Part shown: in pieces, positions 2,786 to 29,232 of the stretch
Layout of the letters: each line of letters opens with the position of its first letter
How positions within the stretch are numbered: the stretch's first letter is position 1
Virus record (IMG/VR): IMGVR_UViG_3300006805_000034
Coordinates: 1-57,374 of that record
Direction: 5' to 3' (one strand)
Source: a virus
Lineage: Duplodnaviria; Caudoviricetes
DNA length: 57,374 nucleotides
The notes under the pieces: generated by a model
What the model saw: only the letters and a program-made list of their open reading frames with translations
Told to the model about the DNA's origin: nothing
The model's database searches: none
Translations under genes and position numbers: made by a program

Positions 2786-3040
2786 TCAGGCGGTGAGGTA
2801 CCAGCCATAGAGGGCGGCCCAGAAGAGGAGGGTGGAGAGGAAGAGTCTGCGCATGCCGCGGGCGGCTTCTTGGGCATCGGCCAACTGGGCGAGGCGGGCG
2901 GCTTCGGGGGTGGGGTCCTGTGCGGCGCTCTCCGGCGGTGAGATACGGGCAGGGCTGAGGCTGCTGCGCAGGCTGGGGAGGGAGCGGCGGAGATCGATCA
3001 TGCGGGTGTCGGCGGGCGGCAGGTAGGCGATGGTCTTCAT
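2786..3040 (-). CDS. Hypothetical protein with C-terminal TM
   Basis: ORF ending LFLSTLLFWAALYGWYLTA; start overlaps the upstream stop. Confidence 0.5.
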   Translation of the reverse strand: MKTIAYLPPADTRMIDLRRSLPSLRSSLSPARISPPESAAQDPTPEAARLAQLADAQEAARGMRRLFLSTLLFWAALYGWYLTA

Positions 3041-3282
3041 GGGATGGTGGGGCGGTGGGATCGAGGACGAGTGGGATGGCCGCTGCGCGGCGAGAGGGTG
3101 GCGTGGAGGAGGATGTGGTCCTGGGCTTTGGCGGCGGCGGCTTCGAGGGTGGCGCGGGGGCTGCGGCCGGTGGGGACGGTGACGGTGATGAAACGCGGGG
3201 CGCGGATCTTGACGCGAACGCGAGTGGTGGTGGGTGATCTCATGGGACGAAGGACGGTTTTAATTTTCGCAAGGGAATGCAC
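3037..3282 (-). CDS. Hypothetical protein
   Basis: Tight operon packing; start could instead be 3243. Confidence 0.4.
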   Translation of the reverse strand: MHSLAKIKTVLRPMRSPTTTRVRVKIRAPRFITVTVPTGRSPRATLEAAAAKAQDHILLHATLSPRSGHPTRPRSHRPTIP

Positions 3283-3285
3283 GGA

Positions 3286-3495
3286 TCAGAGGTCGAGCTG
3301 GCGGGCTTCGTCGAGGGTGGGCACGTTGAGGCGGTCGAGGAGGTTGCTGATGTGCTGGTGGATGGATTGATAGCTGATGCCCAATGCGGCGGCGGCTTGC
3401 TTGCGGGTGAGATTGGTGTTTTTGAAGAGGGAGAGGACTTCCTGCTGGCGCTTGGTGAGCGGGAGGCGGGCGGCGCGGCGGATGGGGAGTTGCAT
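3286..3495 (-). CDS. LuxR/GerE-type HTH regulator
   Basis: LTKRQQEVL...RKQAAAALGISYQSIHQHISNLLDRLNV. Confidence 0.8.
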   Translation of the reverse strand: MQLPIRRAARLPLTKRQQEVLSLFKNTNLTRKQAAAALGISYQSIHQHISNLLDRLNVPTLDEARQLDL

Positions 3496-3564
3496 GGGAA
3501 GAGGGGAAGGGGAATGACGAAAGGCCGGAGGAAGGCAAAAAGATGGGCGGTAAAAAATGGGGAA

Positions 3565-3804
3565 TTAAGCGGCGGAGGCTTTGTAAAGATCCAAGAGGTA
3601 ACCTGGTGACAGTCCGGGATTCCGCCCTTCATCGAGCTTGGACTTTTCTTGCGGACCGTAGTGATAGATCAAAGGATCATTGATGTGAGGGCAGCAGCGA
3701 GCGCCTCCGATGTAGAACTTCACGTGGCAGGTTACACATTCGTAGTATCCGTAGGAAACGGTGATTGTGGGATCGAATGCGATGGTGATTGACGGCGTGG
3801 ACAT
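3565..3804 (-). CDS. Hypothetical Cys-rich protein
   Basis: CVTC...CCPH; bounded by family-I repeats. Confidence 0.55.
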   Translation of the reverse strand: MSTPSITIAFDPTITVSYGYYECVTCHVKFYIGGARCCPHINDPLIYHYGPQEKSKLDEGRNPGLSPGYLLDLYKASAA

Positions 3805-13796: not shown

Positions 13797-16700
13797 ATGC
13801 CTGCTGATCTGAACTACCTGCTCCAAGCCCGCCGCAATCGCTACGCCCAACCTGCCGGAGGAGCGCGTGCGAGCAGCCCTGAAGACCCTCGGGCTGCGGT
13901 GGAGGAGGAGGCGTTTCAGGCGGAGTCCAAACGGCTGGCGCTGGCGGCGAAGGAGCAGGAGGCAGCGGCTGAAGAGGCGGCCAAGGCCTATGAAAAAGGG
14001 CGCAGGGATGCTGACAAGGAAGCGTTGCGGGCGCGCAACAACGAGATGGAAGCCAAGGCCCGGCGCGAGAAACGGCCGATCTACACGGATGCCGACGGCG
14101 TGATCCAGAGCCAGTACACGGATGACGAGTGGCAGGCACAGAAACAGCGCAAGGCCAAGAATGACCAGTTGCGCACGCGGTATTTCAAGGAGCAGCGCCC
14201 GTGGGTGGAAGATGCCGACGGCAACCTGGTGACGCGGCACACGGATGAGCAGTGGCAGGCGATGCAGGCGGAAAAAGTGGCCAAAGAAAAGGCTAAGGTG
14301 ATCGACGACCAAGCGAAGGACTGGCGCGAGCAGAAGGGCGCGGCGCTGACGGCGGTGGATGACCAGACAGCGCAGGTGATGCGTGGGCTGGATCTGGACG
14401 GGCAGGACCTGGGGCTGAGGCACAAGGCCAAGCTGGACACGGTCAAGAAGGCGAATGCGCAGATCAAGCTGCTGGAGCAGGAGATCGAGAACGGCGAGAC
14501 CGAAGCGGGTCAGATTCTGGATGGAGCGGCGATTGCCAAGCGCACGGCGGCACGCCAGGCGCTGGTGGGGGAGCGTGACAAGGTGCAGGCGGAGGCGGAC
14601 GAGGCGGAGGCCAAGCTGCGGGCGCATGAGGTGCGCAAGCTGGAGTACAGTCGGGCCAACAACGAGGTGCAGGGCTGGCTGCAGAGGGAGAAGCATGGGC
14701 TCAAGACGGCGCTGCCGCCGGTGGTGATGGGGGTGAAGGGGAGGGAAGAACCGGCTAAAGCCGGGACTACACTACCCGGAGGCCGGAACCAGAGCCAGAG
14801 CCCGTTGCAAACTGGCGCTCCCAGCCCGGAAACCGGAGGCCGGAACACGCTGAAGCGTGAACAACGTACGCCGGAGGAGGCGGTGCGCAGGGCGGTGATG
14901 GAGGGGCGGATTTCGGCGCTGGCGGAGGATGATTCTTTGTCGGACGAAGAGAGGGCGGTGAAGCTGACGCGGCTGATGTTGCAGCGGGATGATCCGGCGG
15001 CGTATGAGACGCAGGTGCTGCAGGAGTTTGAAAGTCTGGATCCAGAACAACTCAATGCGACGCTGGACGGGCATTTGCAGGATTTCGAGATGCGCAAGCA
15101 GGACTGGCAGTCGCGCCGGGATGCGCTGCGGGAGCAGACCCAGGCAGTGAATGCCGAGGTGGATGGCGTGCTGGCGCGCAATGCGCAGCGGCTGCAGCAG
15201 CCGCACAAGGCGGCGGACTTGATTGAGTACACCACGGCGGACGGTGGGAAAGTGAGTGTGTTCAAGGATCTGGCGCCGCAACTCGAGCAGGCGCAGGAAA
15301 AGGCGGGCACGTTTGAGAAGCAGAATCAAGCGCAGATGGACCAGATCAACGCCGAGGGCGGGGAACTGGAGCGGGCGGCGAAACTCATTCACGCCGGCGG
15401 AGGTGTGTTCCAAAAAAAGCAGGAAGGGGCCCGCGTGGCCGCCAAGGCTGAACGGCAGAAGGTCTATGAGCAGCTCAATGCCATCCCTGGCGCGAAGCTG
15501 GGCGATGAACTGGCGGCGGTGGATGCCGCGGTGGAAAAGCACCAGGGCGGGGATGATGTGAGCCTGCAGGAGTGGGCGGCGAAGGAGCGGGAGAAGATTG
15601 CGGCGAAGGCGGAAGATGTGCAGAAGAAAGTGGGACCGGCGGTGCAGGAAGCCTATGCGGCGGCCAGTGCCAAGATGCCGGCGGGTGTGGACCTGAACGG
15701 GGAACTGGACCGTGATCCGCTGGGGCTAGAAGGCCCGGCATCCGAGGCAGGAGTGACCAAGCTGCTGGAAAAGATGGGGCTGCCATCGTCGAAAGAGAAC
15801 CGTCAAATGGCGGTCAAGATGCTGCGAGATGCGGCGGTGTTGGACTGGAGTCGAGGAGACACCAGCGCTCCGGTACGTACGGACAGTGCGGGTCGGGTGC
15901 TGGTGAATCCTGAGCGCTGGACGGATGGCGAGGCGTATGCCGAAGCCGTGGCCGGGGCGGGCGCGAGTGAGGCGGAGAAGGCCAAGGCGCTGAAGATGCA
16001 GCCGGAACTCAAGGCGCAGGCGATCAAGCTGAAGCTGGACACGCTGCGGCCGCTGGGGGTGTTTCGCGAGTGGGAAGAGGCCGAGGTGCCACCAACGCGC
16101 GAGGAGAAGATGCAGGCGCGGGCCAATGGCACGCAGGCGGTGCCGCGCAAGCTGCATGAAGGTTTGAGTGATGAGGAGAAACTGAAGCTGTTTGAGAAAG
16201 AAAACAGCGGGGTGTTCAGCACCGGAGCGTGGAAGGTGCGCTGGAATCAGGCCTTGCTTGGGGCCGTGCAGGGAGTGATCGGGCTGGCGCAGAGTGCCAC
16301 GGGGATTGCCGCACCGTTCAGCGATACAGCGCTGGATCTGAATCGGAGGTTTGGCCAGGACGCGGCGCAATTGGGCGCGGCCAGTCAGGCGCTGCCGACC
16401 GGGCAGTGGGTGAATCAAGGAGCGAGCATGCTGGTGAGCAGTGCGCCGTCGCTGGCAGTGGGGGGCGCGGTGGGCGCGGCCACCCGAAGCGAAATGCTGG
16501 CGCTGCAAGGCGCGGCGGCGGGTGCTGGACTGCAAACGTTTGGACAGGTGTACGGCGATGCGGTGCAGGGCTCCATGCAGAACAAGGGCATGACCAAGGA
16601 CGAGGCGCGCCAGGCGGCGCTGGTGCCGGCGCTGGCGAGCGGGGTGTCAACCTATGCGTTGACAGCGGCGGGCGGCACGAACGGCATGGAAAGCGCGCTG

Positions 16701-19700
16701 CGTCAGGAAGGGTTCAAACAAGGGCTGAAGCAATGGCTGACAACGGTGGGCAAGGGCGCGCTGAAGGAAGGCGTGCTGGAAGAGGGGCCGGATCAGTTGA
16801 TTCAGGGCGTGATTGCCCGGCACAGCTATGACCCGACGAAGAGCTGGGCGAGCATTTGGGAAGAGACGGCGACGGCGGTGATCGGCGGGGCGCTGATGGG
16901 TGGGGCGTTTGAGATGATGTCGGGCGGTGGAGGTACGTCTCAAAATGGCAAAGGAATGGAGGAGCAAGGGAATGGGGGAACTGGACAGGCTGTGGGGCCG
17001 GAACCAGTCGTCACCCCAGTGGCGGAAACTGAGCCGGTTGTGGCTCGCCCGGAACCGGCTGAAGCCGGGACTACACTACTGCCGGAAACCGGACCGGACA
17101 CGCTTAAGCGTGAACAACGAACAAAAGAGGCGGAGGCGGAGCTGGCGGGGTTTGCGCCGGAGGGGATGTCGGCGGCTGCGGTGGCGGCCACGAAGGCGAA
17201 GGCGGAGGTGCTGCTGCGCATGGCGCAGGGGGAAACGCTGGCTGATTTTAACGATGAAGAGCTGCGTCAGGTGGGGCTGAATCGAGACGGGACGCCGGGG
17301 CATTATGAGTCGGTGCCGGTGGACAAAAAGAATCCGCAGGCGGGACGCACGAGCGTGTGGAAGAAGGGTGTGCGAGCGGATGGGTTTCAGCCGGTGGTGG
17401 TGGAGGACGGGGAACTGATCATAACGCAGCGTCAGATTGACAACCTGGGCGTGCGGTTGCCGGCGGTGGCGGCGCGGATCGGGAAAAGCGAGGTGGAGCG
17501 GAGGCGAGAGATTGCGGGGAAGGGGGCGCTGATTTCTGGCAAAGGAATGAAGGATCAAGGGAATGCCGGAACCGGAGTGGAGGGCCGCAAAGAAGCGCAA
17601 GAACCGGAGAAAAAAGGGTCAGAGGCCGGAGGTGGACAGGATGGACAGGATTCCAGAATTTCAGGATTGAGGACGGAACTCGCGGCGGCGGCGGCTGCCG
17701 AGTCTAGCCCCGTGGTGGCTAGCCCGGAACCGGCTCAAGCCGGGACTACACTCCTGCCGGAGGACGGAACCGGAGCGGACAGGAGTGTCCGCGCTCCTGT
17801 TGAAGCGGTGGGGTTTGATCCGGCGGTGGAGCGGCGGGTGGATGAGATTGGGGCGGAGCTGGCGGGCCGTGGACTGAGCGGGGAGCAGGCGCTGAGGGCG
17901 GCGCGTGGGGTGGTGGGGCGCATGGGCGTCATGGGGCCGAAGTATGAGGTGCAGATGATCGACCCGGCGTTTGAGGAGGCGATGAAAGCGGAGGGATTTC
18001 AGCGGGATCCGGCCAAGATGTCGCGGTGGATGGCGCGTGGGCAGTTCAAGGCGGAGACGCGGGGGGAAAAGCCGGTGATGCGGAAGGCGGAGGGTGCTAA
18101 GAGTGGACCTGGGGTGGCTAGCCCGGAACCGGCTGAAGCCGGGACTACAATACCCGGAGGCCAGAGCCAGTTGCAAACTGGCGCTCCCAGTACGGAGGCG
18201 GGCAAGAGTGCCCGCGCTCCGCTCATTGAGCGCGGTGACTGGAAGCAGGCGAAGGGGGAAGTGATTGGGGTGATGCAGGGACGTGCGAAGGGGCTGCCGG
18301 AGGCGGGGAAGAAGGCGGCGGGGGACAAGATCAAGGCGGTGGTGAAGCGGTTCAACAAGCTGGAGGAGCTCATTGACACAAAGTTTGGACGTCTGTTTGA
18401 GGGCGTGCGGATTGTGCCGAATGGGAGTTCAGGCGGCGGTGGGCTGGCAGCGCAGGTGACGGGCTACGATGCGCAGGGCCGTGCCACGGGTGTGGAGCTG
18501 GTGGTGGATGCGGCGACGTTTGCGGAAGCGGGCGGCGTGACGGATTCTGAACTCGAGCGTGCGCTGAATGAGGAGTGGCAGCACCGCGCGGACCTGATGG
18601 TGATGAGCCGGAGCGAGGCTATTGCTTTGGCGCGGGACATTCATGCGGCGCAGCCGGGGGTGTTTAACTCGGCGTGGAAGCAGTACTTTGCGGTGTATAT
18701 CAACGCGGGAAGCAAGCCAGCCAAGCCGCCGGTGGAACTGACCGATGACGAGGCTTACATGATGTATTTTGAGGCCAGCCGCATGATCCGCCAAGGGACG
18801 TTCACCAGTGAGAATGCGGCGATTCGTGACGTGGGGCTGCTGCAACGCATGTACCTGATGCTGAGCCGGTACGTGAATTTTGTGAAGCGCGAGATGAAGA
18901 AGCTGCCGCAGGATCTGCGCGAGCTGTGGGAGGACAAGCTGACAGCAGCGGAAGCGGTGATGCGCAAGACGAAGGAGGCGGGGATTCGGTTGCAGAAGGA
19001 AGGCTTGGATGACGTGGAGCCGCCGGAGGGATTGCCGCAAAAAGGCGCAAAAACTCGCAAAAAAGAGGAAGTTAATGAGGATGAGGAAGCCATGGCGATG
19101 GCGGCGGATGCTGAGATGGATGTGCGGCCCGAGCGGAAGGGGGCGCTGCGGAATCCGGGTGAGAATGCAATTCGGGGCATGGCGGCCATTCCTGACCCGG
19201 ACAACGGCAAGGAAAACGTGGTGGTGTGGATCAATCGCTACCATGGACGCATCACGCGGCCGTCCAAGGGCTGGCTGGAACGCATGGCGCAGGACGGCAA
19301 GGACCGCTCAAAAATTGGCGACTGGGATGACATTCGGCAGGCGGAGATCCCGAGCTTTTATGCGGGGCTGGTGTTCAAGAACGGCAACGGCAGCACGCTG
19401 GACCAAGCACTGCAGGAGCTGCATGGCCTGGGGTATTTCCCCGGCGTGGCCGCTGAGGATGTGACCGGCGAGATGCTGGCCCGCAAGATCAAGGACGTGA
19501 TCCAACGCTACCAGGGCAAGAAGCAGGGCGGCGCCACAACGGTGCAGGATGAGGAGCAGGCGCATTTTGAGCGGATGGAGAAGCAGCGGGTGGAGTTTGA
19601 GCGCAGCACGTCCAAGGGGCCGATCTACGTCAAGCCGCATGAGATGCAGCCCGGTGACGTGATGATGGTGAAGGCCGATGATGGCAAGATGCACCGAGTG

Positions 19701-21494
19701 GAGGTGCTGCGACTGGACAGTGAGCCTGTGGCTGCGGGTGACGAGTTTGATCCGGATGCGAATCCGGCGCAGTTCATGGGCCCGGATGGGCCGATGGAGA
19801 TCCGGAGTGTGACGCTCAGGGACGGCACGACGTTTGGCGTGCAGACGATCGACGGTCAGCAGGGGCTGTACGTGGATGCCTTCAGCGTGCGCCAGGAAGG
19901 CGACTTTTACGCCGGGCTGAGCGATGCGGTGCAGAATCGCACGATCGACGATGCGGACGCGGTGCTGCGGGTGATGCAGCACGAGGGCATGGATGCCACG
20001 ACGCCGTTTTCGCAGATCGTGCTGGCGATTCAGCAGAACCTGCGGGTGCCGATGCGGCGCGCGCAGAAGATGCTGGCGCAGGTGATGGACACAGATGCCA
20101 ACGCCACGGTGTGGACGAATGGAGAACTCAAGGAAGCGCTGGAGAGTCCGCTGGGGAGTCCTAAGAAACAGGCTGGGCCGGGATTGTTTGGGGAGGATGA
20201 GATGAACTTTCTGGGGGACCGGAACACGCTGGGGCTGTTTGAGCAGGCAGGGCGTAAAGAAGCGCAGGTTTCTGGCAAAGGAATGAAGGAGCAAGGGAAT
20301 GCCGGAACCGGAGTGGGGACCACGGATGGCACGACTAGAACGGATCAGAAGACGAAGGCCGGCGGTGGACAGGATTTACAGAATTCCATCATTACAGGAT
20401 TGCCGAAAAGCGCTGAACGACCCAGTTTTGCGCAGGTGCGTGATGCGATTGTGGCACAGACCCCGGAGAAACGAGGCTTGTCAGTGGATGATTACATTGA
20501 TGACAATTTGGAGCGGACTTATCCGGCTCCTGGAACTCGATTTAAAGTCAATGGTAAGACCTACCATTGGACCATCACCCCAGGAACCAAGCTGCGTGGC
20601 AGCAGCATGGCTTTCAGCAATCCGTGGATGAGTGTTTTTGAAGGGGAGCGCAATTTCTTGGTCAAAATTCCTTTTGCCCCCGAACTCACGGCGTCACATC
20701 TGCGCAAAGCAGTGAGGGCAATTCACGAGGATGCTTATCCCGCCAAAGAGTTCACCCTGGAAGCGAGCACGGCGCAGGAGCTCAAGGCCGAGGCGGAGAG
20801 GAAGGTGCTGCGGGAGAATCTGCTGGCGCGGGCGGAGAAGCCGCTGGTGGGGACGCTGGGGGACATCGGGCAGACGCAGATGTTTGGGGGCGGGGATTTG
20901 TTTGCGCAGCCGAAGAAAACAACCGATACTCAAAACCAAGATGCACCAGCTACCTCCGGAAGTTTGGAACCAGATCGCCCGCGAGGCACCGCTGGCGACA
21001 CCGGCCGCACGCGCGGCCTTCAACCTGCCGCCCCAGAAGCAGGAGGCAATGCTCAACCAGTGGGCCCAGAGCGAGCAGAAAGCCAAGACGCCGGCGTGGG
21101 CGGTGGTGCCACTGCAGGAGGTGCTGCCCCTGCTGGCGGAACAGCCGGCGCTGAGCCAGTTCAAGGACAAGCATCCCGAGTTCCTGGACGCCCTGCCCGA
21201 GGTGAACAGCCCGCAGGAGGCGGCGCAATTGATGAGCCGAGAGCGGCAGTGGAGTCCGGCGCAGAGCTCGACCTTTCTCCAGTTGCTCCAGAGCGGCCAG
21301 CCGTTGACACGGTGGCAGCAGAGCGCGAGGTTACTGCACGCGACCGCCAGCTAGAGCAGGCCAAAGTTCAGGTAGAACCCAAAGAATGGGATCGGATGAA
21401 AGTGGCTGATGAGAGAGAGCATCGCCAAGAGTTTGCCGATGCTGCTGCCGCAGCAGCAGGACGATGTGCTGAAAACGGAGCGCCGCTTTTTTGA
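13797..21494 (+). CDS. Giant polyvalent internal virion protein, N-terminal half
   Basis: 2565-aa ORF: coiled coils, G/A-rich ejection-protein-like region, zincin-like LNEEWQH; probably joins the next ORF at 21411-21420. Confidence 0.8.
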   Translation: MPADLNYLLQARRNRYAQPAGGARASSPEDPRAAVEEEAFQAESKRLALAAKEQEAAAEEAAKAYEKGRRDADKEALRARNNEMEAKARREKRPIYTDADGVIQSQYTDDEWQAQKQRKAKNDQLRTRYFKEQRPWVEDADGNLVTRHTDEQWQAMQAEKVAKEKAKVIDDQAKDWREQKGAALTAVDDQTAQVMRGLDLDGQDLGLRHKAKLDTVKKANAQIKLLEQEIENGETEAGQILDGAAIAKRTAARQALVGERDKVQAEADEAEAKLRAHEVRKLEYSRANNEVQGWLQREKHGLKTALPPVVMGVKGREEPAKAGTTLPGGRNQSQSPLQTGAPSPETGGRNTLKREQRTPEEAVRRAVMEGRISALAEDDSLSDEERAVKLTRLMLQRDDPAAYETQVLQEFESLDPEQLNATLDGHLQDFEMRKQDWQSRRDALREQTQAVNAEVDGVLARNAQRLQQPHKAADLIEYTTADGGKVSVFKDLAPQLEQAQEKAGTFEKQNQAQMDQINAEGGELERAAKLIHAGGGVFQKKQEGARVAAKAERQKVYEQLNAIPGAKLGDELAAVDAAVEKHQGGDDVSLQEWAAKEREKIAAKAEDVQKKVGPAVQEAYAAASAKMPAGVDLNGELDRDPLGLEGPASEAGVTKLLEKMGLPSSKENRQMAVKMLRDAAVLDWSRGDTSAPVRTDSAGRVLVNPERWTDGEAYAEAVAGAGASEAEKAKALKMQPELKAQAIKLKLDTLRPLGVFREWEEAEVPPTREEKMQARANGTQAVPRKLHEGLSDEEKLKLFEKENSGVFSTGAWKVRWNQALLGAVQGVIGLAQSATGIAAPFSDTALDLNRRFGQDAAQLGAASQALPTGQWVNQGASMLVSSAPSLAVGGAVGAATRSEMLALQGAAAGAGLQTFGQVYGDAVQGSMQNKGMTKDEARQAALVPALASGVSTYALTAAGGTNGMESALRQEGFKQGLKQWLTTVGKGALKEGVLEEGPDQLIQGVIARHSYDPTKSWASIWEETATAVIGGALMGGAFEMMSGGGGTSQNGKGMEEQGNGGTGQAVGPEPVVTPVAETEPVVARPEPAEAGTTLLPETGPDTLKREQRTKEAEAELAGFAPEGMSAAAVAATKAKAEVLLRMAQGETLADFNDEELRQVGLNRDGTPGHYESVPVDKKNPQAGRTSVWKKGVRADGFQPVVVEDGELIITQRQIDNLGVRLPAVAARIGKSEVERRREIAGKGALISGKGMKDQGNAGTGVEGRKEAQEPEKKGSEAGGGQDGQDSRISGLRTELAAAAAAESSPVVASPEPAQAGTTLLPEDGTGADRSVRAPVEAVGFDPAVERRVDEIGAELAGRGLSGEQALRAARGVVGRMGVMGPKYEVQMIDPAFEEAMKAEGFQRDPAKMSRWMARGQFKAETRGEKPVMRKAEGAKSGPGVASPEPAEAGTTIPGGQSQLQTGAPSTEAGKSARAPLIERGDWKQAKGEVIGVMQGRAKGLPEAGKKAAGDKIKAVVKRFNKLEELIDTKFGRLFEGVRIVPNGSSGGGGLAAQVTGYDAQGRATGVELVVDAATFAEAGGVTDSELERALNEEWQHRADLMVMSRSEAIALARDIHAAQPGVFNSAWKQYFAVYINAGSKPAKPPVELTDDEAYMMYFEASRMIRQGTFTSENAAIRDVGLLQRMYLMLSRYVNFVKREMKKLPQDLRELWEDKLTAAEAVMRKTKEAGIRLQKEGLDDVEPPEGLPQKGAKTRKKEEVNEDEEAMAMAADAEMDVRPERKGALRNPGENAIRGMAAIPDPDNGKENVVVWINRYHGRITRPSKGWLERMAQDGKDRSKIGDWDDIRQAEIPSFYAGLVFKNGNGSTLDQALQELHGLGYFPGVAAEDVTGEMLARKIKDVIQRYQGKKQGGATTVQDEEQAHFERMEKQRVEFERSTSKGPIYVKPHEMQPGDVMMVKADDGKMHRVEVLRLDSEPVAAGDEFDPDANPAQFMGPDGPMEIRSVTLRDGTTFGVQTIDGQQGLYVDAFSVRQEGDFYAGLSDAVQNRTIDDADAVLRVMQHEGMDATTPFSQIVLAIQQNLRVPMRRAQKMLAQVMDTDANATVWTNGELKEALESPLGSPKKQAGPGLFGEDEMNFLGDRNTLGLFEQAGRKEAQVSGKGMKEQGNAGTGVGTTDGTTRTDQKTKAGGGQDLQNSIITGLPKSAERPSFAQVRDAIVAQTPEKRGLSVDDYIDDNLERTYPAPGTRFKVNGKTYHWTITPGTKLRGSSMAFSNPWMSVFEGERNFLVKIPFAPELTASHLRKAVRAIHEDAYPAKEFTLEASTAQELKAEAERKVLRENLLARAEKPLVGTLGDIGQTQMFGGGDLFAQPKKTTDTQNQDAPATSGSLEPDRPRGTAGDTGRTRGLQPAAPEAGGNAQPVGPERAESQDAGVGGGATAGGAAPAGGTAGAEPVQGQASRVPGRPARGEQPAGGGAIDEPRAAVESGAELDLSPVAPERPAVDTVAAEREVTARDRQLEQAKVQVEPKEWDRMKVADEREHRQEFADAAAAAAGRCAENGAPLF
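20941..21354 (+). CDS. Nested out-of-frame gene, 137 aa, unknown function
   Basis: A-rich leader then ATG; G/C-ending codons in this frame; the host frame is a low-complexity linker. Confidence 0.65.
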   Translation: MHQLPPEVWNQIAREAPLATPAARAAFNLPPQKQEAMLNQWAQSEQKAKTPAWAVVPLQEVLPLLAEQPALSQFKDKHPEFLDALPEVNSPQEAAQLMSRERQWSPAQSSTFLQLLQSGQPLTRWQQSARLLHATAS

Positions 21495-24400
21495 GCAGAC
21501 ACCCACGGAAACCGACCCGAAAAGAGGGGTGATGTTTACCAACGGCACGGGCACGGGCAAAACCTTTACCGGGCTGGGCATCATCAAACGGTTTGAGATG
21601 ATGGGCAAAGGCCGCGTATTGATCGTGGTGCCGAGCCAGCAGAAAGTCACCGACTGGAAGAACGAAGGCGCGCGGGTGATGGTCAAGGTGAACCCGCTGA
21701 ACGACACCAATGACGTGGGAGAGGATGTGGTGGCGACGACCTACGCCAATCTGCGCGACAACTGGAAGCTTCAAAGCGAGCCGTGGGACCTGGTGGTGTA
21801 CGATGAAAGCCACTACCTTTCCAGCAATGCCCAGGGCAACGAAGGAGCCAACATACGCGCGCATGAACTGGCCACTAACAAGCCCGGATGGAACCAGATG
21901 GAGAAATGGACGCAGGCAGTGCTGGGACCGCGCCCCAGTCGCCGGGAAGATGAAGCCGCAGCCAAGCGCTACGACAACGCCGCCGAGCAGGCCAGCAAGC
22001 AGATTCAGTACCTAGCCGACACCGCCCCGGACACCAAGGCCGTGTTTTTGAGCGCGACGCCTTTCGCGTATCACAAAAACCTCAAATACGCCGACGGCTT
22101 TCTTTACTCGGCCCCGCCGCGCTCGGACAGCAGCGCCTACAACACGCCGCAGGGCTTTGAGCGCTATTTGGTGGAGAATTTTGGGTACACGATGCGGACC
22201 AACCGCCTCAACTCGCCACCGCCTGAAGTGGACACGGGATTGATGGAACGCGAGTGGGCGGAGCGCCAGTTTCAGCAGGGCAGCATGAGCGGACGCATGA
22301 TTGACGTGCCGTATGATTACAGCCGTGAATTTGTGCTGCTGAACTCGGAAACGGGCCGCCTGCTGGATGAAGGATTCCGCAGTTTGTCGGGATGGGACCC
22401 CGACACGCGGGACCGCTGGCCGGAGCTGACAAGTGCCTTCAACAGCTACTGGCGCAGCAGCAGCAGCGGGTACACAAAGATGATGCAGTTCATGGAGTCC
22501 ATCAAAGTGGCGGACGCCATTGAGCGCATGCAGCAGCACCTTGACATGGGGCGCAAGATTGTGCTGTTCCATTCCTACAACAACGCCGATCCGCTGCACC
22601 CGTTCCAGTTGAGCTATCTGGCACCGGCTTACCGCAATGATCCTGCCGAGCAGATCGGGGAACGGCAGATGCTGGAGCAGCAGACCCGCGACTGGATGTC
22701 GGCGCACCCCAAACTGGTGCAGATGAATTTCCGACGTTTGCAAAATCCTCGTGCCCTAGTGGCGCAGGAGTTTGGGGACCGGGTGAAATTCTTCAACGGG
22801 GAAGTGGGCAAGAAAGACCGCGCAGCGGCGATCACGCAGTTTAACGACGACAACAGCGGCGTGGACATCTTCATGGTGCAGACCGATGCCGGCAAGGAAG
22901 GTATCAGCCTGCATGATACCACGGGCAAAAAGCAGCGCGTGCTGATGAACGCCAGCCTGCCGGTGAAACCGACTGATGCCATCCAGGAGGAAGGGCGCAT
23001 TTACCGCATCGGCGTGCTTTCGAATGCCATCCAGGAGTATCTGGTGCTGCACACCAACATGGAGCGCAGCGCCTTCGGCAGCAAGATCAGCCAGCGCACG
23101 GGCACCGTGGAAAACATGGCCTTAGGCCAGATGGCGCGCACGCTGACGGATTCCTTTAAATCCGGCTATCTGAACGCGCACGGCGAAGATCCGAGCCGGG
23201 AGCAGGGGCTTGGCGGCAAGGAGCAGGACAAGGCCGAGCTGCTGGGGGACGACTTCACCCGCGCCAAATCCTATTACTTTGGACGCATGAAGAAAACCAG
23301 CCGCAACAAGGCGGCTGAAGGGCAGGACTATTTTGCCACCCCGGAGCCGCTGGGGCTGGTGATGGTGCGCATGCTGGGAGCCAAGCCGGGCATGGACCTG
23401 CTGGAGCCGAGTGCCGGGCACGGAGCCATTGGGCGGTGGTTTCCTGACACCACGGCCAACAAGTTCATCGAGCCGAGTCGTACGCTGGCGGATGAACTGC
23501 GCATCAAGGTGGCGTCTGGGAAGGTGGAAGTGCAGCCTTTCGAGGATCTGCACATCATGAACAAATTCGACGGCGTGGCGATGAACCCGCCGTTTGGCAC
23601 GGCGGGCAAGCTGGCCATTGAGCACCTGGCCAAGGCCAGCAGGCACCTGCGCCAGGGCGGGCGCATGGTGGCCATCATTCCCGAAGGGCCGGCGATGCAG
23701 AAGCGCTTTGATGCCTGGCTGGAGGGCGAAGGGGCTGACATGCACCTGCGCGCATCCTACGGGTTGCCGACAGTAACATTTGAACGGGCGGGCACGAGCG
23801 TGAAAACGCGGTTGGTGGTGCTGGATAAAGCCGACCTGTGGACGGTGAGGCATGAGCCTGAAACAGGGACGTATGCCGCCTATGACAGTTTTGGCGAAAA
23901 GCGCCGGTCATACAAAGGTGGGGAGAAAACGTTGCGGGATCTGGCGGAAACCAATCCTGAGTTTATTGGCTGGCAGGATCAGGCGAATTTCCAAAATCGC
24001 AGCCCCCGCGAGATTGAGGCCGAGAACGTGAAGGAATTCTTTGACGAGATCGAGAACCTTGAAGCACCGCCGCGCATCGTCAAAACGGTGGCGACGGGGG
24101 CTTTGGATTCGGAAACTACATGGACGCCGCCTTATCCAGGTGCGCCCAATCCCAGCATTGCCGAGGCAATGCAAAACATGCAGCAGCAAAACCAAAGAGT
24201 GCCGAGCATGGCCCCTGCGGCACCCGTAGTCACCCCAGCCGCCGCTGCTTCCAATCCTTACGAGTCCGCGCAGACGCTGCACGCGAAAAAGGGCGTGATG
24301 ACCTACGTGGCCAAGATGTCGCGCCGCTTGAGTGATGCCACCTACCAGAGCGAGAAGAACCGCGCCAAGAAGTTTGGCGGGTACTACTCCGCCTTCAAAG

Positions 24401-27400
24401 GCAGCGGAGCCATTCCAGGATTCCAGTTTGAAAGTGCTGACAAACGCGATGCGTTCGTGGGTGGGTACACAGAGTCGGCACCTTTGAGCAGCCCGAGGAA
24501 GCAGATGCCGATTTTGAAGACGATTGAGAAGGTGCAGGAGTGGTCTCAAGCGGAGAACAAGAAAGAGGTGCTGGATCAACTGCCGGAGGATTTGCAGGCG
24601 AAGATCGAAGCGGATGAGCGCTGGCAGTGGCTGGAGAAGCATGATGCGAGCGAGGAGTTTGCGCCGTGGTATCCAGAGCCCTACCGGACGGCAAGTCGGG
24701 TGTATGCCGACCTTTCAGCGCGTCAGGCGGCAGATGAAGAGCTGACGGCCGCTGAAGACAAGGCGATGGACAAGGCGCATGACAAGCTGCTGGCCTGGGA
24801 GATGGCCGGCGGCCCGTGGAATCATGTGCTGGCGACGTATGAGCCGGAGATTGAGGCGCGGATGAAAGAAGTGATTGCGCAGATTGAGGCGACGGGGCGC
24901 TGGGAATGGGACAAGCGGGAGAGGGCGTTTGTGGCGACGGATGAGGACAATGAGCAGGTGCTGTACAGTCCGAGGAAGCAGGGGGGTGCCAAGACGGAGA
25001 AAGAAGTGTTTGATCACCGGCTGGCGGTGGCAAAGGCGGAGATTGAGAAGGACATGAGCGAGGGCGTGGTGCCGCGTGGAGTGCGTTCTTTTGCGGAACT
25101 GCATGACTCGGTGGATGCCAATGAGTACGTGAATGACAAGGAGCGGCCCGACCGGATGATTGGCCCGATGGGCACGGCGCAGGGCTGGCGTGCTCAGGAG
25201 TATGTGAATTTTACCAATAAGTTGATTGAGGCGCTGGATGAGTGGCTGAAACAAGGGGGTGCGGCCGGAAGCCAGAACACGCTAAAGCGTGAACAACGTA
25301 CGGGGATTGATGAGGCGGCGCATGAGGCGGCGACGTCGCCGAGGAATGATTTGGCGGAGCCGACGGCGGCGCAGAAGGAGGCGGGGAATTATGCCATGGG
25401 GCATGCTGTCATTGGTGGGCATGAGATTTCGATTGAGAATCCGGCGGGGTCGAGGCGCAGGCCGGAGTGGCCGGTGCTGAGGGATCACTATGGGTACCTG
25501 AAGGGCACGAAGGGGCAGGACGGGGACCAGGTGGACTTGTTTGTGAAGCCGGGGACGCCGGCGGACTATGCGGGGCCGGTGCATGTGGTGCGGCAGAATG
25601 TGGTGGAGGGGGGAGATGATGCTGGATCCTTGATGCTGGATGCTGGATCCAGAACCGGAGCCGGAGCGGGCAAGAGTGCCCGCGCTCCACTGAGGGCGAC
25701 GGGGAAGCTGGATGAGTACAAGGTGATGCTGGGGTATCCGACGGCGGCGGAGGCGCGGGCGGCGTATCTGCGCAACTACACGCCCGGCTGGCCGGGGCTG
25801 GCGAAGCTGACGACGCACACGATGCCGGAGTTTGAGGTGATCAAGCGGAGCGTGTTTGGCGGCGATGCGGGGGCGAGGGCGACGGACAAGGCGCTTGCGA
25901 GCGCCCAGAAGCAGGGGCAGGGTGGAGGCATGGCCAATCCCGACAAGGCCGATCAATCTCAAGCCATCCAACCCGCTTTGTTTGCCCGGCTCAAGGGTTC
26001 AAAGACGTTGTATCCTGTTCGTGACTTGGATGATGTGGCCAAAAAAGCCTCATGGATGAAGGTGAGATACCAATCCCGCCCGATAGTCGAGATTGTGACC
26101 AGCGATGGGATTGTGCGAGGGGTGAGTGATGAACAAGGTGTTATTCGTGAACCGAATGGCACCGTGATCTGGAACCCGTTTGATGATGAAAATACCGACC
26201 TGCTGGCGGCACCCCGCAAGCAGGGGAAGGCGCTGGAGATGATGGCGAAGGCGGACTGGGGGCGGATTGACAAGGCTCTTACGGGGCGGCTGGCGCAGGC
26301 GGTGACGGATGCGGCGCAGTGGATCAAGAAGCAGGCGCTGCCGGGTGAGGCGCAGGTGAACCCCGTGGATGCGGCGCTGGAGCTGCTGGCGGGGTGGAGG
26401 GTGGAAGGGCAGGCGGCTATGGGCGGGGTGAAACTGAAGCCAGACCAGAGGCAGGAGCTCATGGCTCAGACCCGGCGGCAGATGCGCCGGGCGTGGAACT
26501 ATGCGCAGCGGCAACTGGTGCCGGATGCCTCCCTGCCGGCGGATGTGCTGGCCAAAAAGCGCGAGATGACGATGAACCAGGGGCTGAGCAATGAGGTGGC
26601 GCTGGACATCGGCAAACGGGCGCTGGCGGGCAAACCGAAGCTGTCCGACCTGGTGGTGGGTGAGGCGCAGCAGAATCCAGAGATCCGGCGCAAGATGTTC
26701 CTGGCGATGAACCCGCGAATTGACAGCGGAGTGACGATGGACAGCCTCAATCCCGAAGAGCGGCGGGTGGCGGAGGCTTTACTGAAGCTGCGCGACGACC
26801 TGGGAAAACGCATGGTGAAGGCGGGACGGATCGGACTGCAGACGTATGAAGCGATGCGGGAGGGCACGAGCCACTACTATGACCATGACGTGAAGCGGGA
26901 GAAATCCCTGCTGCGGCAGATGAGTCTGGGGCTGCGCAACTTGTTTGCCCAGACGGCCACGGCGTATCACATCGTGGACACGCAGACGAAGCAGCCGGAT
27001 GGCAGTCCGGCGCTGGTGATGCACCCTGGAAGCCGGAACCGGCCGACGTATCGCTTTGAGACGCAGGAGCAGATGCGCGGGTGGTACGAGGAGTTCATCA
27101 AGGACCAGATTTTGCAGGCGGCGGAGAAGGGCAACGCCGGGCGCTACCCGTGGATGACGCAGGCGGACAAGGCGGCGCTGATGGGCGTGACGCGGGACAG
27201 CCTGAACAATCCGGGCCGGATGAGCGCCGAGCAGCGCGCGGTGGTGTCGCGCCTGCAGGAGCAGCTCCGGGCCCGCTTTGAGAAGCGGATGCCGCTGAGC
27301 TACGACGAGCACAGCAAGGCGGGGCTGATTGAAGACCCGTTTTACTCGGTGGCCCGACAGATCGCCGAGATGGGGCATGACGTGGCGACTGCGGAGTTTT

Positions 27401-29232
27401 TCAACTACATCGATTCCGTGCCGGACTACGTGCGGGATGCACCCACGATCGGCTACACGGAGATGCCTGACACGGCCAAACTGGGAGCGCTGGCCGGGAA
27501 GTACGTGCGGGATGACGTGGCGGCCGAGGTGCAGCAACTGACCGAGCTGCCAGGGCTGGGCATGAAATTCTATGATGCGCTGCTGGGGCTGTTCAAAACC
27601 GGCAAGACGGTGCTCAACCCCGGAAGCCACGGGCGCAACATCGTGGGCAACATCGCCTTTGCGCATCTGGCGGGGAGCAATCCGCTGAACCCCGGCAATG
27701 CCACGTACTACGCCGAGGCGCTGCGCGTGCTGCGGGACGGCGGCGAGGCCTACCGGGAGATGTATGAGAACGGCGTGCTGGGCGGCGACTTCCTGACCGG
27801 GGAAGTGAAGCGCAGCCTGCGGCAGCTGGTGCCGGATGCGGACACGGTGCTGCGGGAGGCCGAGAACGGCAACATGACTTGGCTGTACGGGCCCAAGGAG
27901 CACATGGCGCGGCGCTGGCAGGGCTTGCTGAAAACGCCCGGGAAGGCACTGGACATTGCAGCCACGGCCTGGCGGCTGGAGGATGACATTTACAAAGCAG
28001 CGGCCTACCTCAAGGCGAAGGGCATGGGCATGACCAGCAAAGAAGCAGCGGAGCACGTGCGCGAGTGGTTCCCCTACTACGACAAGGGGACGAGCGGCAC
28101 GCTCAAGGCGCTGGGACGCTTTGCCTTCCCGTTCCTGAGCTTCAAGCGGGAGAGTTTCCGCATTCTGAAAAACGGGCTGACGAAGAAGCCGCTGGCAACG
28201 ATCGCCACGCTGGCGCTGCCGAGGCTGCTGACGCAGATCGCGCTGACGACGGCCGAGATGCGCCTGCTGATGTGGACGCTGGGCCTGGGGCTCAAGGACG
28301 AGCGAGACAAGGAAGACGTGATGAAGGCGCTGAAGGGTCGGGCCGGACGCCTGCTGAGCCCGATTGCGGGGGATTCAAGCCTCTTCAGCATTTTGCTGCC
28401 GTGGCGGGATGACAACGGGGGACTGCAGCAGTGGGACCTGAGCAACACGCATCCCTTTGGCGACTGGCTGGCCACGCGCATCGAGGACGCCGAGAGCAAG
28501 GAGCCGTGGCTGGCACGGCAGGCGCGTGAGATGCTGACGGGATCGCCGTTGTTGGGGCTGCTGACAGAGACTGCCTTCAATAAGGATGGATTCACCGGGC
28601 GGCGGATTTATGAGGATGACATGAGCAGCGGCGAAGCCACCGGCAAGCTAGTGGAACATGCGTTTACGGAACTGGCACCACCGATCACGCCCACGGTATC
28701 GCTACCGAACGGCGTGAAGCTGGAGGGCACGAGCGCGCGCACGATCCGGAAAGCCTTTGAGCAGAGCCCGAGCAAGCTGGCCCCGGCGCGGAATCCGACG
28801 CAGGCGCTGATCCGCACGCTGGTGGGGCTGGATGTGCGGCCCGCGGACCCGAACCTGTATGAGGACGTGGCGAAGTATCGGGAGAAGAACAAGCTGCCGG
28901 CGGTGCCGCGGGGGCAGCAGTTCCCGAGCGATGCCGTGGGCCGTGCGCGGGCGGAGCTGTACCGCCTTCTCATTCATCCGGAGGTGGATGTGCCGGCGGT
29001 GAAGGCGCAACTGGAGGTGCTGACGAAGCACGGGGCGAAGATCCCGAGCGTGCAGGATTTGTTTAAGGATCGGCAGCCGCAGGATGTGATGAGGCTGAAG
29101 AAGCACCAGGCGCGCTGGATGAACCAACTGCCGCCGGAGGCGCGGCGGGTGCTGGAGGCGGCGCAGGCGCAGCAGAGTGGGGCGAAGCCGAAGGCGCTGG
29201 ATGCGATGGCGAAGGCGCGGGCGGGTGGGTGA
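21409..29232 (+). CDS. Giant polyvalent DarB-like protein, C-terminal half: SF2 helicase, N6-adenine MTase, PPase-like domain
   Basis: NGTGTGKT, YDESH, LSATP, EGISLHD..QEEGRIYR; DYFATP, LEPSAGHG, NPPF; AQKEAGNY..HYGY..DGDQVD..DEYKVMLG. Confidence 0.88.
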   Translation: MRESIAKSLPMLLPQQQDDVLKTERRFFEQTPTETDPKRGVMFTNGTGTGKTFTGLGIIKRFEMMGKGRVLIVVPSQQKVTDWKNEGARVMVKVNPLNDTNDVGEDVVATTYANLRDNWKLQSEPWDLVVYDESHYLSSNAQGNEGANIRAHELATNKPGWNQMEKWTQAVLGPRPSRREDEAAAKRYDNAAEQASKQIQYLADTAPDTKAVFLSATPFAYHKNLKYADGFLYSAPPRSDSSAYNTPQGFERYLVENFGYTMRTNRLNSPPPEVDTGLMEREWAERQFQQGSMSGRMIDVPYDYSREFVLLNSETGRLLDEGFRSLSGWDPDTRDRWPELTSAFNSYWRSSSSGYTKMMQFMESIKVADAIERMQQHLDMGRKIVLFHSYNNADPLHPFQLSYLAPAYRNDPAEQIGERQMLEQQTRDWMSAHPKLVQMNFRRLQNPRALVAQEFGDRVKFFNGEVGKKDRAAAITQFNDDNSGVDIFMVQTDAGKEGISLHDTTGKKQRVLMNASLPVKPTDAIQEEGRIYRIGVLSNAIQEYLVLHTNMERSAFGSKISQRTGTVENMALGQMARTLTDSFKSGYLNAHGEDPSREQGLGGKEQDKAELLGDDFTRAKSYYFGRMKKTSRNKAAEGQDYFATPEPLGLVMVRMLGAKPGMDLLEPSAGHGAIGRWFPDTTANKFIEPSRTLADELRIKVASGKVEVQPFEDLHIMNKFDGVAMNPPFGTAGKLAIEHLAKASRHLRQGGRMVAIIPEGPAMQKRFDAWLEGEGADMHLRASYGLPTVTFERAGTSVKTRLVVLDKADLWTVRHEPETGTYAAYDSFGEKRRSYKGGEKTLRDLAETNPEFIGWQDQANFQNRSPREIEAENVKEFFDEIENLEAPPRIVKTVATGALDSETTWTPPYPGAPNPSIAEAMQNMQQQNQRVPSMAPAAPVVTPAAAASNPYESAQTLHAKKGVMTYVAKMSRRLSDATYQSEKNRAKKFGGYYSAFKGSGAIPGFQFESADKRDAFVGGYTESAPLSSPRKQMPILKTIEKVQEWSQAENKKEVLDQLPEDLQAKIEADERWQWLEKHDASEEFAPWYPEPYRTASRVYADLSARQAADEELTAAEDKAMDKAHDKLLAWEMAGGPWNHVLATYEPEIEARMKEVIAQIEATGRWEWDKRERAFVATDEDNEQVLYSPRKQGGAKTEKEVFDHRLAVAKAEIEKDMSEGVVPRGVRSFAELHDSVDANEYVNDKERPDRMIGPMGTAQGWRAQEYVNFTNKLIEALDEWLKQGGAAGSQNTLKREQRTGIDEAAHEAATSPRNDLAEPTAAQKEAGNYAMGHAVIGGHEISIENPAGSRRRPEWPVLRDHYGYLKGTKGQDGDQVDLFVKPGTPADYAGPVHVVRQNVVEGGDDAGSLMLDAGSRTGAGAGKSARAPLRATGKLDEYKVMLGYPTAAEARAAYLRNYTPGWPGLAKLTTHTMPEFEVIKRSVFGGDAGARATDKALASAQKQGQGGGMANPDKADQSQAIQPALFARLKGSKTLYPVRDLDDVAKKASWMKVRYQSRPIVEIVTSDGIVRGVSDEQGVIREPNGTVIWNPFDDENTDLLAAPRKQGKALEMMAKADWGRIDKALTGRLAQAVTDAAQWIKKQALPGEAQVNPVDAALELLAGWRVEGQAAMGGVKLKPDQRQELMAQTRRQMRRAWNYAQRQLVPDASLPADVLAKKREMTMNQGLSNEVALDIGKRALAGKPKLSDLVVGEAQQNPEIRRKMFLAMNPRIDSGVTMDSLNPEERRVAEALLKLRDDLGKRMVKAGRIGLQTYEAMREGTSHYYDHDVKREKSLLRQMSLGLRNLFAQTATAYHIVDTQTKQPDGSPALVMHPGSRNRPTYRFETQEQMRGWYEEFIKDQILQAAEKGNAGRYPWMTQADKAALMGVTRDSLNNPGRMSAEQRAVVSRLQEQLRARFEKRMPLSYDEHSKAGLIEDPFYSVARQIAEMGHDVATAEFFNYIDSVPDYVRDAPTIGYTEMPDTAKLGALAGKYVRDDVAAEVQQLTELPGLGMKFYDALLGLFKTGKTVLNPGSHGRNIVGNIAFAHLAGSNPLNPGNATYYAEALRVLRDGGEAYREMYENGVLGGDFLTGEVKRSLRQLVPDADTVLREAENGNMTWLYGPKEHMARRWQGLLKTPGKALDIAATAWRLEDDIYKAAAYLKAKGMGMTSKEAAEHVREWFPYYDKGTSGTLKALGRFAFPFLSFKRESFRILKNGLTKKPLATIATLALPRLLTQIALTTAEMRLLMWTLGLGLKDERDKEDVMKALKGRAGRLLSPIAGDSSLFSILLPWRDDNGGLQQWDLSNTHPFGDWLATRIEDAESKEPWLARQAREMLTGSPLLGLLTETAFNKDGFTGRRIYEDDMSSGEATGKLVEHAFTELAPPITPTVSLPNGVKLEGTSARTIRKAFEQSPSKLAPARNPTQALIRTLVGLDVRPADPNLYEDVAKYREKNKLPAVPRGQQFPSDAVGRARAELYRLLIHPEVDVPAVKAQLEVLTKHGAKIPSVQDLFKDRQPQDVMRLKKHQARWMNQLPPEARRVLEAAQAQQSGAKPKALDAMAKARAGG

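Follow-up and report, generated by a model that had tools for sequence, protein, structure and literature searches.

Overprinted genes are known from small viruses such as phiX174, where E lies within D, and K and B lie within A. We analyse here a nested gene in a very different setting, at positions 20941 to 21354 of the IMG/VR virus record IMGVR_UViG_3300006805_000034 (Caudoviricetes; 57,374 bases, about 60% G+C, completeness estimate 93%), the whole of which is referred to below as the window. In this record, an open reading frame (ORF) of 137 codons lies entirely inside a giant ORF (ORF1), in its +1 frame and just ahead of a helicase-methylase cassette. The reading that we favour is that this ORF is a genuine coding gene, nested in the gene of a giant polyvalent virion protein of antirestriction type ('DarB-like', 'PLxRFG', 'LPD38') and acting together with the cassette, and we give this statement as a whole a probability of about 0.6. 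Its first part, that the nested ORF is a real translated gene, is very probably correct on comparative sequence evidence, and its second part, that the small protein is a functional partner of the giant protein, is tentative and stands somewhat below even odds.

Nested genes in the +1 frame are known in phages, and the closest architecture is Rz1 within Rz, the embedded-class spanin genes of lambda-like phages, which the available text of an account of phage JC1 mentions (PMC9144972). As with Rz/Rz1, a complete gene is placed inside another on the same strand, in the +1 frame and with its own start, and both products would be made late. However, Rz1 is a lipoprotein with a signal sequence and a lipobox cysteine, whereas the nested family described here is free of cysteine (0.0% across 47 aligned members) and looks soluble, with eight predicted helices; no Rz1-type lipobox is present, and the gene lies in the virion module, not in the lysis module. 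Moreover, unlike in Rz/Rz1, the host reading is a disordered linker within a protein that is 3,300 to more than 5,000 amino acids long, and the constraint falls almost wholly on the nested frame. As in the overprinted genes of small viruses, two proteins are specified by one stretch of DNA, one ordered and one disordered, but here the large gene appears to be the derived, disordered reading and the small gene looks ancestral, and the genome is that of a 57-kb double-stranded DNA phage with no obvious size pressure.

The host gene belongs to the polyvalent proteins (Iyer et al. 2017, PMC5512222), with which it shares a multi-domain organisation, association with the virion, a helicase and a methylase, and LPD-type annotation. 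According to the text available for these sources, giant polyvalent proteins of related podophages are virion-associated in the proteomics of JC1 (PMC9144972), and they have been proposed to be packaged ejection proteins (phi24B preprint, 10.64898/2026.04.10.717836). In phage P1, the Dar accessory proteins Hdf, DarA, DdrA, DdrB and Ulx are needed for the incorporation of DarB into the capsid (Piya et al. 2017, cited in PMC9144972). These are small proteins serving a giant helicase-methylase virion protein, and we tentatively liken the nested protein to them in function; they are encoded by separate genes, whereas the small protein here is nested. What is new at the present locus is an unnamed family without a fold match, a giant polyvalent host gene, an unconstrained reading in the large gene, and the breadth of the arrangement. 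A term search of the accessible text of PMC5512222 finds neither 'overlapping' nor 'frameshift' nor 'alternative frame', and no published description of the nested gene was found in the open literature, supplements and subscription journals lying outside that scope.

Conservation of the nested arrangement among relatives

The first-pass annotation of the window, made from the letters alone, had placed a hidden gene of 137 amino acids in the +1 frame of the giant protein's linker, and coordinates, frames and relatives all agree with this. The product starts MHQLPPEVWNQIA. No stop interrupts the giant frame across the nested ORF, where its translation is a stretch rich in G, A, P, R, E and D, and the third frame is closed by many stops. 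A version of 207 amino acids in the same frame is possible from an ATG at 20731; its 70 N-terminal residues, which abound in Arg, are not matched in relatives, and 20941 is therefore taken as the family start. The small frame matches the codon usage of the phage, with a G+C content at codon positions 1, 2 and 3 of 0.69/0.45/0.86 against 0.63-0.69/0.44-0.45/0.75-0.79 in the giant genes, consistent with the mostly G/C-ending codons noted at the outset; the giant frame within the overlap is shifted (0.87/0.69/0.46).

A blastn search of positions 19500-23000 against phages gave no match. At the protein level, a tblastn search of 50,697 phage records with the 137-residue protein retrieved six records from four phages, and a second family member used as query added two Vibrio phages. 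The cultured phages that carry the nested ORF are Skulduggery, Parlo, ZX1, Ruegeria 45A6, Vibrio 1.232.O and Vibrio D274. In all six, as well as in a Comamonas plasmid, the homologous ORF lies at +1 of one annotated giant coding sequence, the frames having been verified by translation, and the search for out-of-frame homologs in polyvalent protein genes that had been proposed beforehand is thereby answered in the affirmative. The host coding sequences are named 'DarB-like antirestriction', 'PLxRFG protein', 'N-6 adenine-specific DNA methylase', 'LPD38 domain-containing protein' or 'hypothetical', and none of the seven records (six phages and the plasmid) has a separate feature annotated at the nested ORF. 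The plasmid (L070, NZ_CP083940.1), in which the giant gene bears the name 'LPD38 domain-containing protein', is a 57.7-kb circular element of Comamonas thiooxydans; its length and contents point to a phage-plasmid, or to a phage genome that has become circular, more than to a true plasmid.

Uncultured loci were found in IMG/VR (55), in metagenomes (3) and in contigs of metagenome-assembled genomes (MAGs; 4), and a later scan contributed two new ones (L074 and L075), also nested, which bring the tally from 69 loci with 55 distinct proteins to 71. In the window and in 71 of 71 related loci, the whole ORF (120-142 amino acids in the relatives) lies inside a longer ORF of the same strand, at +1 of an open giant frame. 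For the 69 loci, the nested protein has a median length of 129 amino acids (range 120-142), an ATG stands at the aligned family start in every case, the giant frame is free of stops over the ORF and 100 codons on either side of it, and the third frame is interrupted by a stop inside the ORF. The giant frame is open to both locus ends in 55 of the first 59 loci; it starts inside L020 and L031 and stops inside L050 and L058, always far from the overlap. The three findings that the first-pass annotation had named as fatal to the gene (no homologs, an unconserved start or stop, or compensating frameshifts) are all contradicted by these loci.

The breadth of the family is considerable, with hosts in Pseudomonas, Serratia, Klebsiella, Vibrio, Ruegeria and Comamonas, MAGs labelled Polaromonas, Methylomonas and Tepidisphaeraceae, and in addition a gut-like clade. 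In this divergent gut-like subgroup (L024, L035-L058), three ATGs occur within eight codons, which leaves the exact start ambiguous, and gene callers place it five codons upstream of the start used here. The small protein of one of its members (L035) gave no tblastn match among cultured phages.

Constraint, fold and start of the small protein

The ratio of nonsynonymous to synonymous substitution rates (dN/dS) was estimated by the Nei-Gojobori method over the overlap, per clade and in the three frames (Table 1). Across the seven clades it ranges from 0.14 to 0.37 in the small frame and from 0.51 to 2.56 in the giant frame, values which are a signature and not rates, because overlapping frames confound each other.

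Table 1. dN/dS over the overlap in each of the three reading frames, by clade
Clade	Small frame	Giant frame	Third frame	Pairs
G1	0.28	1.87	1.05	28
Window's own clade (window, L060-L062)	0.28	2.26	1.61	6
G2	0.14	2.15	1.21	21
G3	0.30	1.86	0.93	10
G4	0.27	1.31	1.27	6
G5	0.37	0.51	1.19	3
G6	0.32	2.56	1.12	1

In a sliding analysis of the nucleotide alignment of eight G1 loci, cut into 16 segments of 150 nucleotides, variation is greatest at third positions of the giant frame in 13 segments; third positions of the small frame vary most in just the three (2400-2850) that cover the overlap (2501-2890). Distant loci are 23-34% identical to the window in the small frame and 9-27% in the giant frame, whose alignment does not contain any invariant or near-invariant column.

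Synonymous resampling in 18 loci separates the two kinds of constraint. When the small protein is kept fixed and its synonymous codons are drawn from the usage of the giant gene, the giant frame remains open in 0-15% of trials (median 2%), so that the openness of this frame in 71 of 71 loci indicates that it is also selected, for continuity. When the small ORF's own codons are permuted, the giant frame is open in 1.5-55% of trials; this higher figure fits a codon choice that already avoids giant-frame stops, given the elevated third-position G+C of the small ORF, which exceeds that of its flanks in 21 of 21 cases. The small frame is hence under purifying selection for its protein sequence, and the giant frame is selected only for the absence of stops. 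The earlier idea that both frames are under selection is upheld in this form, the selection differing in kind. A codon-usage rule reportedly due to Pavesi and others is said to point to the older frame in cases of overprinting. In the window and in 19 of 20 loci, the small frame of the overlap agrees more closely with the synonymous usage of the genome than the giant frame does, and by this criterion the small gene looks older.

The helical protein foreseen from the sequence is borne out by AlphaFold2, which predicts eight helices for the small frame (47-sequence alignment) with a mean predicted local distance difference test score (pLDDT) of 94 and a predicted template modelling score (pTM) of 0.85. 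As a control, the giant-frame reading of the overlap, modelled with 37 sequences drawn from the same loci, yields a pLDDT of 50.9, a pTM of 0.12 and no secondary structure except one terminal helix. In the small frame, A, L, Q and E are abundant; the giant frame contains 16.6% G, 14.3% A, 9.9% R and 8.9% D, with 0% W, 0.2% M and 0.4% Y, a composition that reads as that of a disordered linker, in keeping with the G/A/P/R/E linker first proposed.

A profile of the 47-sequence alignment was searched against 1.84 billion representatives and matched 611 protein clusters (at 50% identity) at E <= 1e-3, 456 at E <= 1e-10 and 51 at E <= 1e-30. Among the best 150 matches, the alignment begins at residue 1-3 of the called protein in 135, and the protein is 105-152 amino acids long in 120. 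Family proteins are mostly acidic, with a median isoelectric point of 4.87 and a median net charge of -5 (range -19 to +6). None of 88 family proteins in a 5.8-billion set has a precomputed Pfam domain, and their sole name is 'hypothetical protein'. A search for longer, fused homologous proteins found none, which is weak evidence, and no Pfam family is present in ten longer profile matches that were inspected. One metagenomic protein, P0105 (328 amino acids), carries the nested-protein domain fused in frame ahead of a 'GARSF...RPYLKSWY' domain (BLASTP E = 3e-14), the domain found just upstream of the overlap in Skulduggery-like giant proteins. This fusion is a possible Rosetta-stone hint of an interaction, or possibly an indel artefact. 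The C-termini of P0027 and P0163 had been seen by eye as the same domain; BLASTP does not support this, and only P0105 matches. The loci of P0105 and of another longer protein, P0150, were not found in IMG/VR.

Conservation of the protein starts exactly at Met1, and the gene has a start codon of its own across the family and a ribosome-binding motif in most clades, the window's clade being without a Shine-Dalgarno (SD) motif. An SD-like 5-mer at -18..-4 precedes the nested ATG in 36 of 69 loci, against 8% of 47,348 background positions, and an SD-like 4-mer in 43 of 69, against 24%. In the genome of the window phage, an SD-like motif is found at only about 4 of 22 long ORFs, so that its absence at the nested ATG is the norm of this genome and not a defect of the gene; these counts suggest that the host of the phage initiates largely without SD pairing. 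Many plus-strand ORF starts of the window are preceded by T-rich (GATTTT) or A/C-rich sequence.

The giant gene and its helicase-methylase cassette

The features of the locus are collected in Table 2. As had been noted, the helicase and the methylase-type motif, NPPF, which we take to be motif IV of N6-adenine methylases, directly follow the nested gene in ORF2.

Table 2. Features of the nested gene, its host gene and the adjoining cassette in the window
Feature	Position	Strand	Remarks
Nested small gene	20941..21354	+	137 codons + TAG (21352-21354); +1 frame of giant ORF1
ATG of the nested gene	20941..20943	+	spans giant-frame codons GAT and GCA
A/C-rich leader	20915..20940	+	upstream of the nested ATG; no Shine-Dalgarno motif
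Giant-frame reading of the overlap	20940..21353	+	138-codon linker, predicted disordered; open, sequence not conserved
Giant ORF1	13797..21494	+	2565 amino acids; host gene of the overlap
Giant ORF2	21409..29232	+	2607 amino acids; next frame after ORF1
ResIII/Helicase_C helicase	ORF2 residues 18-535, nt 21460-23013	+	Pfam
NPPF methylase-type motif	ORF2 residue 726, nt 23584-23595	+	motif
Inorganic-pyrophosphatase-like InPase domain	ORF2 residues 1321-1402	+	PF18823, E = 4e-29; beyond helicase and methylase
Frame break splitting the giant gene	21405..21420	+	GA dinucleotide run 21411-21419; window only

A tblastn search with the helicase module (ORF2 residues 1-620, E <= 1e-4) retrieves exactly the eight phage records that have the nested gene, in agreement with the suggestion that the small gene travels with this domain. 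The parts of the giant protein upstream of the overlap differ by clade: a 'PL.GT.GDIGQ..M.GGGDLF' motif is found in the window's clade, and the GARSF domain in Skulduggery-like phages, L031 and L074. Moreover, nothing in L005, whichever frame is read, corresponds to a control stretch of the window's ORF1 located 1.5 kb upstream, while the nested proteins of the window and L005 are 68% identical. The matching distribution of helicase and nested gene, together with the variable upstream parts, indicates that the conserved unit is formed by the nested gene and the helicase-methylase cassette. The position immediately before the helicase is not universal, since L020 has about 300 additional amino acids of giant frame between the two (2885-3800). 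In L031, the giant gene is interrupted: its upstream part ends at 1499 and the helicase-bearing part with the nested gene resumes near 1813, and an ORF of 163 amino acids, ferritin/Dps-like by eye only, occupies 1490-1981.

The split of the giant gene into ORF1 and ORF2 is specific to the window. In all relatives that reach the junction, including three at 75-81% protein identity, the ORF1 frame runs straight into the helicase. Between 21326 and 21434 the window has 107 letters, against 106 in contigs of two runs, and no contig of an identical strain covers 21346-21413. The break could reflect a genuine mutation, slippage in the repeat or misassembly; its position is downstream of the nested gene, and the finding is not affected.

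ORF1 itself has no Pfam domain at E <= 0.001. It contains a 'PEPA(E/Q)AGTT(L/I)' repeat about four times, on each occasion ahead of a similar stretch rich in Gly and Gln, and a 'SGKGMK(D/E)QGNAGTG' repeat about three times; these repeated motifs could be processing or docking sites of a polyprotein.

Alternative explanations and a possible role

The rival that survives best accepts the small gene as real and sees in its product an independent effector, for anti-defence or host takeover, merely trapped in the overlap without a physical link to the giant protein. Acidic character, which prevails in this family, is common among small phage inhibitors, and an evolutionary ratchet alone could maintain the nesting. 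In addition, binding to the helicase is not supported by complex prediction of the small protein with ORF2 residues 1-620, although the score of 0.00 is no evidence either way. Against this explanation, the small gene is confined to one helicase-cassette lineage in the searched collections and never stands alone in 71 loci, the spread of its charge does not indicate a uniform DNA-mimic character, and P0105 joins it in frame to a domain of the giant protein. We regard an independent effector as unlikely.

A programmed +1 ribosomal frameshift, yielding a truncated isoform in which the N-terminal giant modules end in the small domain, is very improbable. In the window and in L005, no stop interrupts the small frame over the 70-102 codons ahead of the ATG, and a shifted ribosome could enter it there. 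However, the ATG is immediately preceded by a stop codon in 14 of 69 loci, and in 35 of 69 a stop is found no more than 10 codons before it, which excludes frameshift entry from the giant frame in those lineages. The invariant ATG, the roughly six-fold enrichment of SD-like motifs and the onset of conservation at Met1 also argue against it, and the arrangement differs from the lambda G/GT type, where the frame is reachable only from upstream and has no start of its own.

It is barely credible that the ORF is a chance open frame in a G+C-rich gene, conserved as a by-product of selection on the giant frame. Its length by itself is not beyond chance: ORF1 and ORF2 contain 10 further stretches of 100 codons or more that are open off-frame from stop to stop, among them one of 211 codons, and synonymous permutation that keeps the giant-frame amino acids leaves the small frame open in 0.3-100% of trials, depending on the locus. 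Since length is uninformative, the case for the gene rests on the comparison with relatives. What is beyond chance is the conserved start, stop and frame relation, the purifying selection at the protein level and the confident fold. This selection sits on the small frame, the wrong one for a chance reading, and it is also the small frame that has the higher identity among distant loci and the higher pLDDT (94 against 51). The other long off-frame open stretches of ORF1 (137-211 codons) are located at 16196-16831, 18961-19464, 19751-20164 and 20642-21154; an off-frame stretch at 19009-19464 has no counterpart in L005.

Finally, an artefact in which two compensating sequencing frameshifts disguise a part of the giant protein is practically negligible, as the two-frame arrangement with a small-frame start and stop recurs in 71 of 71 independent loci, including the complete genomes of six cultured phages, even if the unverified frame break nearby casts suspicion on the assembly of the window. 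We reject these last three alternatives, namely the fusion product of a frameshift, the chance ORF and the compensating frameshifts.

Several points weigh against the reading of a nested gene acting with the cassette, apart from the mutual confounding of the dN/dS values. In G5 the small and giant frames are not clearly separated (0.37 against 0.51, from three pairs), the SD-like motif is missing in the window's clade (window, L005, L060-L062), and no RNA runs with the nested-gene stretch are listed. Read-through of the giant frame is something that we infer from its openness. The co-occurrence of small gene and cassette is expected anyway from their adjacency within one gene, and, overlapping frames being hard to separate, the conserved nesting is no proof of functional coupling. 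As to function, the small protein has nothing at cut-offs in Pfam (LPD families included), PHROGs, NCBIfam and PADLOC; the best sequence profile match in the PDB has E = 0.27, Foldseek against the PDB and BFVD returns nothing for the model at E <= 1e-3, VIA-align reaches a best Z of 4.4 with none of 5 or more, and the ESM Atlas holds no usable match. HD-domain and transcription-factor helical domains appear in VIA-align at Z 3.5-4.4 and are regarded as common helical arrangements. Neither Foldseek nor VIA-align lists an Ocr/ArdA-type fold, which does not exclude such a fold. The first-pass annotation had gone on to suggest a chaperone or inhibitor that silences the adjacent enzyme in the producer cell; its nested gene stands, and the silencing role stays hypothetical, no fold or family match pointing to a function.

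Under the reading of a nested gene acting with the cassette, ribosomes would initiate internally at the nested ATG on the late mRNA of the giant gene and release a free protein of about 15 kDa, and the giant polypeptide would be translated through, the shadow sequence forming a flexible tether from the upstream modules to the helicase-methylase cassette. The small gene would be the older reading, and the linker would have been overprinted onto it when the upstream modules were joined to the cassette. Its product may be an accessory factor that handles or regulates the cassette (folding, packaging or control), in the producer cell or during packaging and ejection, and nesting would make small gene and cassette inseparable by recombination. 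A dedicated partner of the helicase-methylase cassette, which accompanies the small gene throughout, is the most likely role. The fullest version of this proposal is doubtful: a giant protein built by read-through of an older small gene, whose product would be a partner that the cassette cannot do without, either as a chaperone for folding or packaging or as an antidote silencing the enzyme until ejection, and would represent a new family and fold in hundreds of phage lineages.

The nested gene adds a widespread unannotated family (611 clusters) to a class of phage proteins that is studied for antirestriction and DNA ejection, and one that standard annotation overlooks. It appears as an unusually clean case of dual coding, with sequence constraint in one frame and only the requirement of 'no stop' in the other, and is a useful test case for methods of overlapping-gene detection and for theories of overprinting and disorder. 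If it is true that the small protein controls or chaperones the injected helicase-methylase, this would explain how such giant enzymes are kept harmless or packaging-competent in the producer cell.

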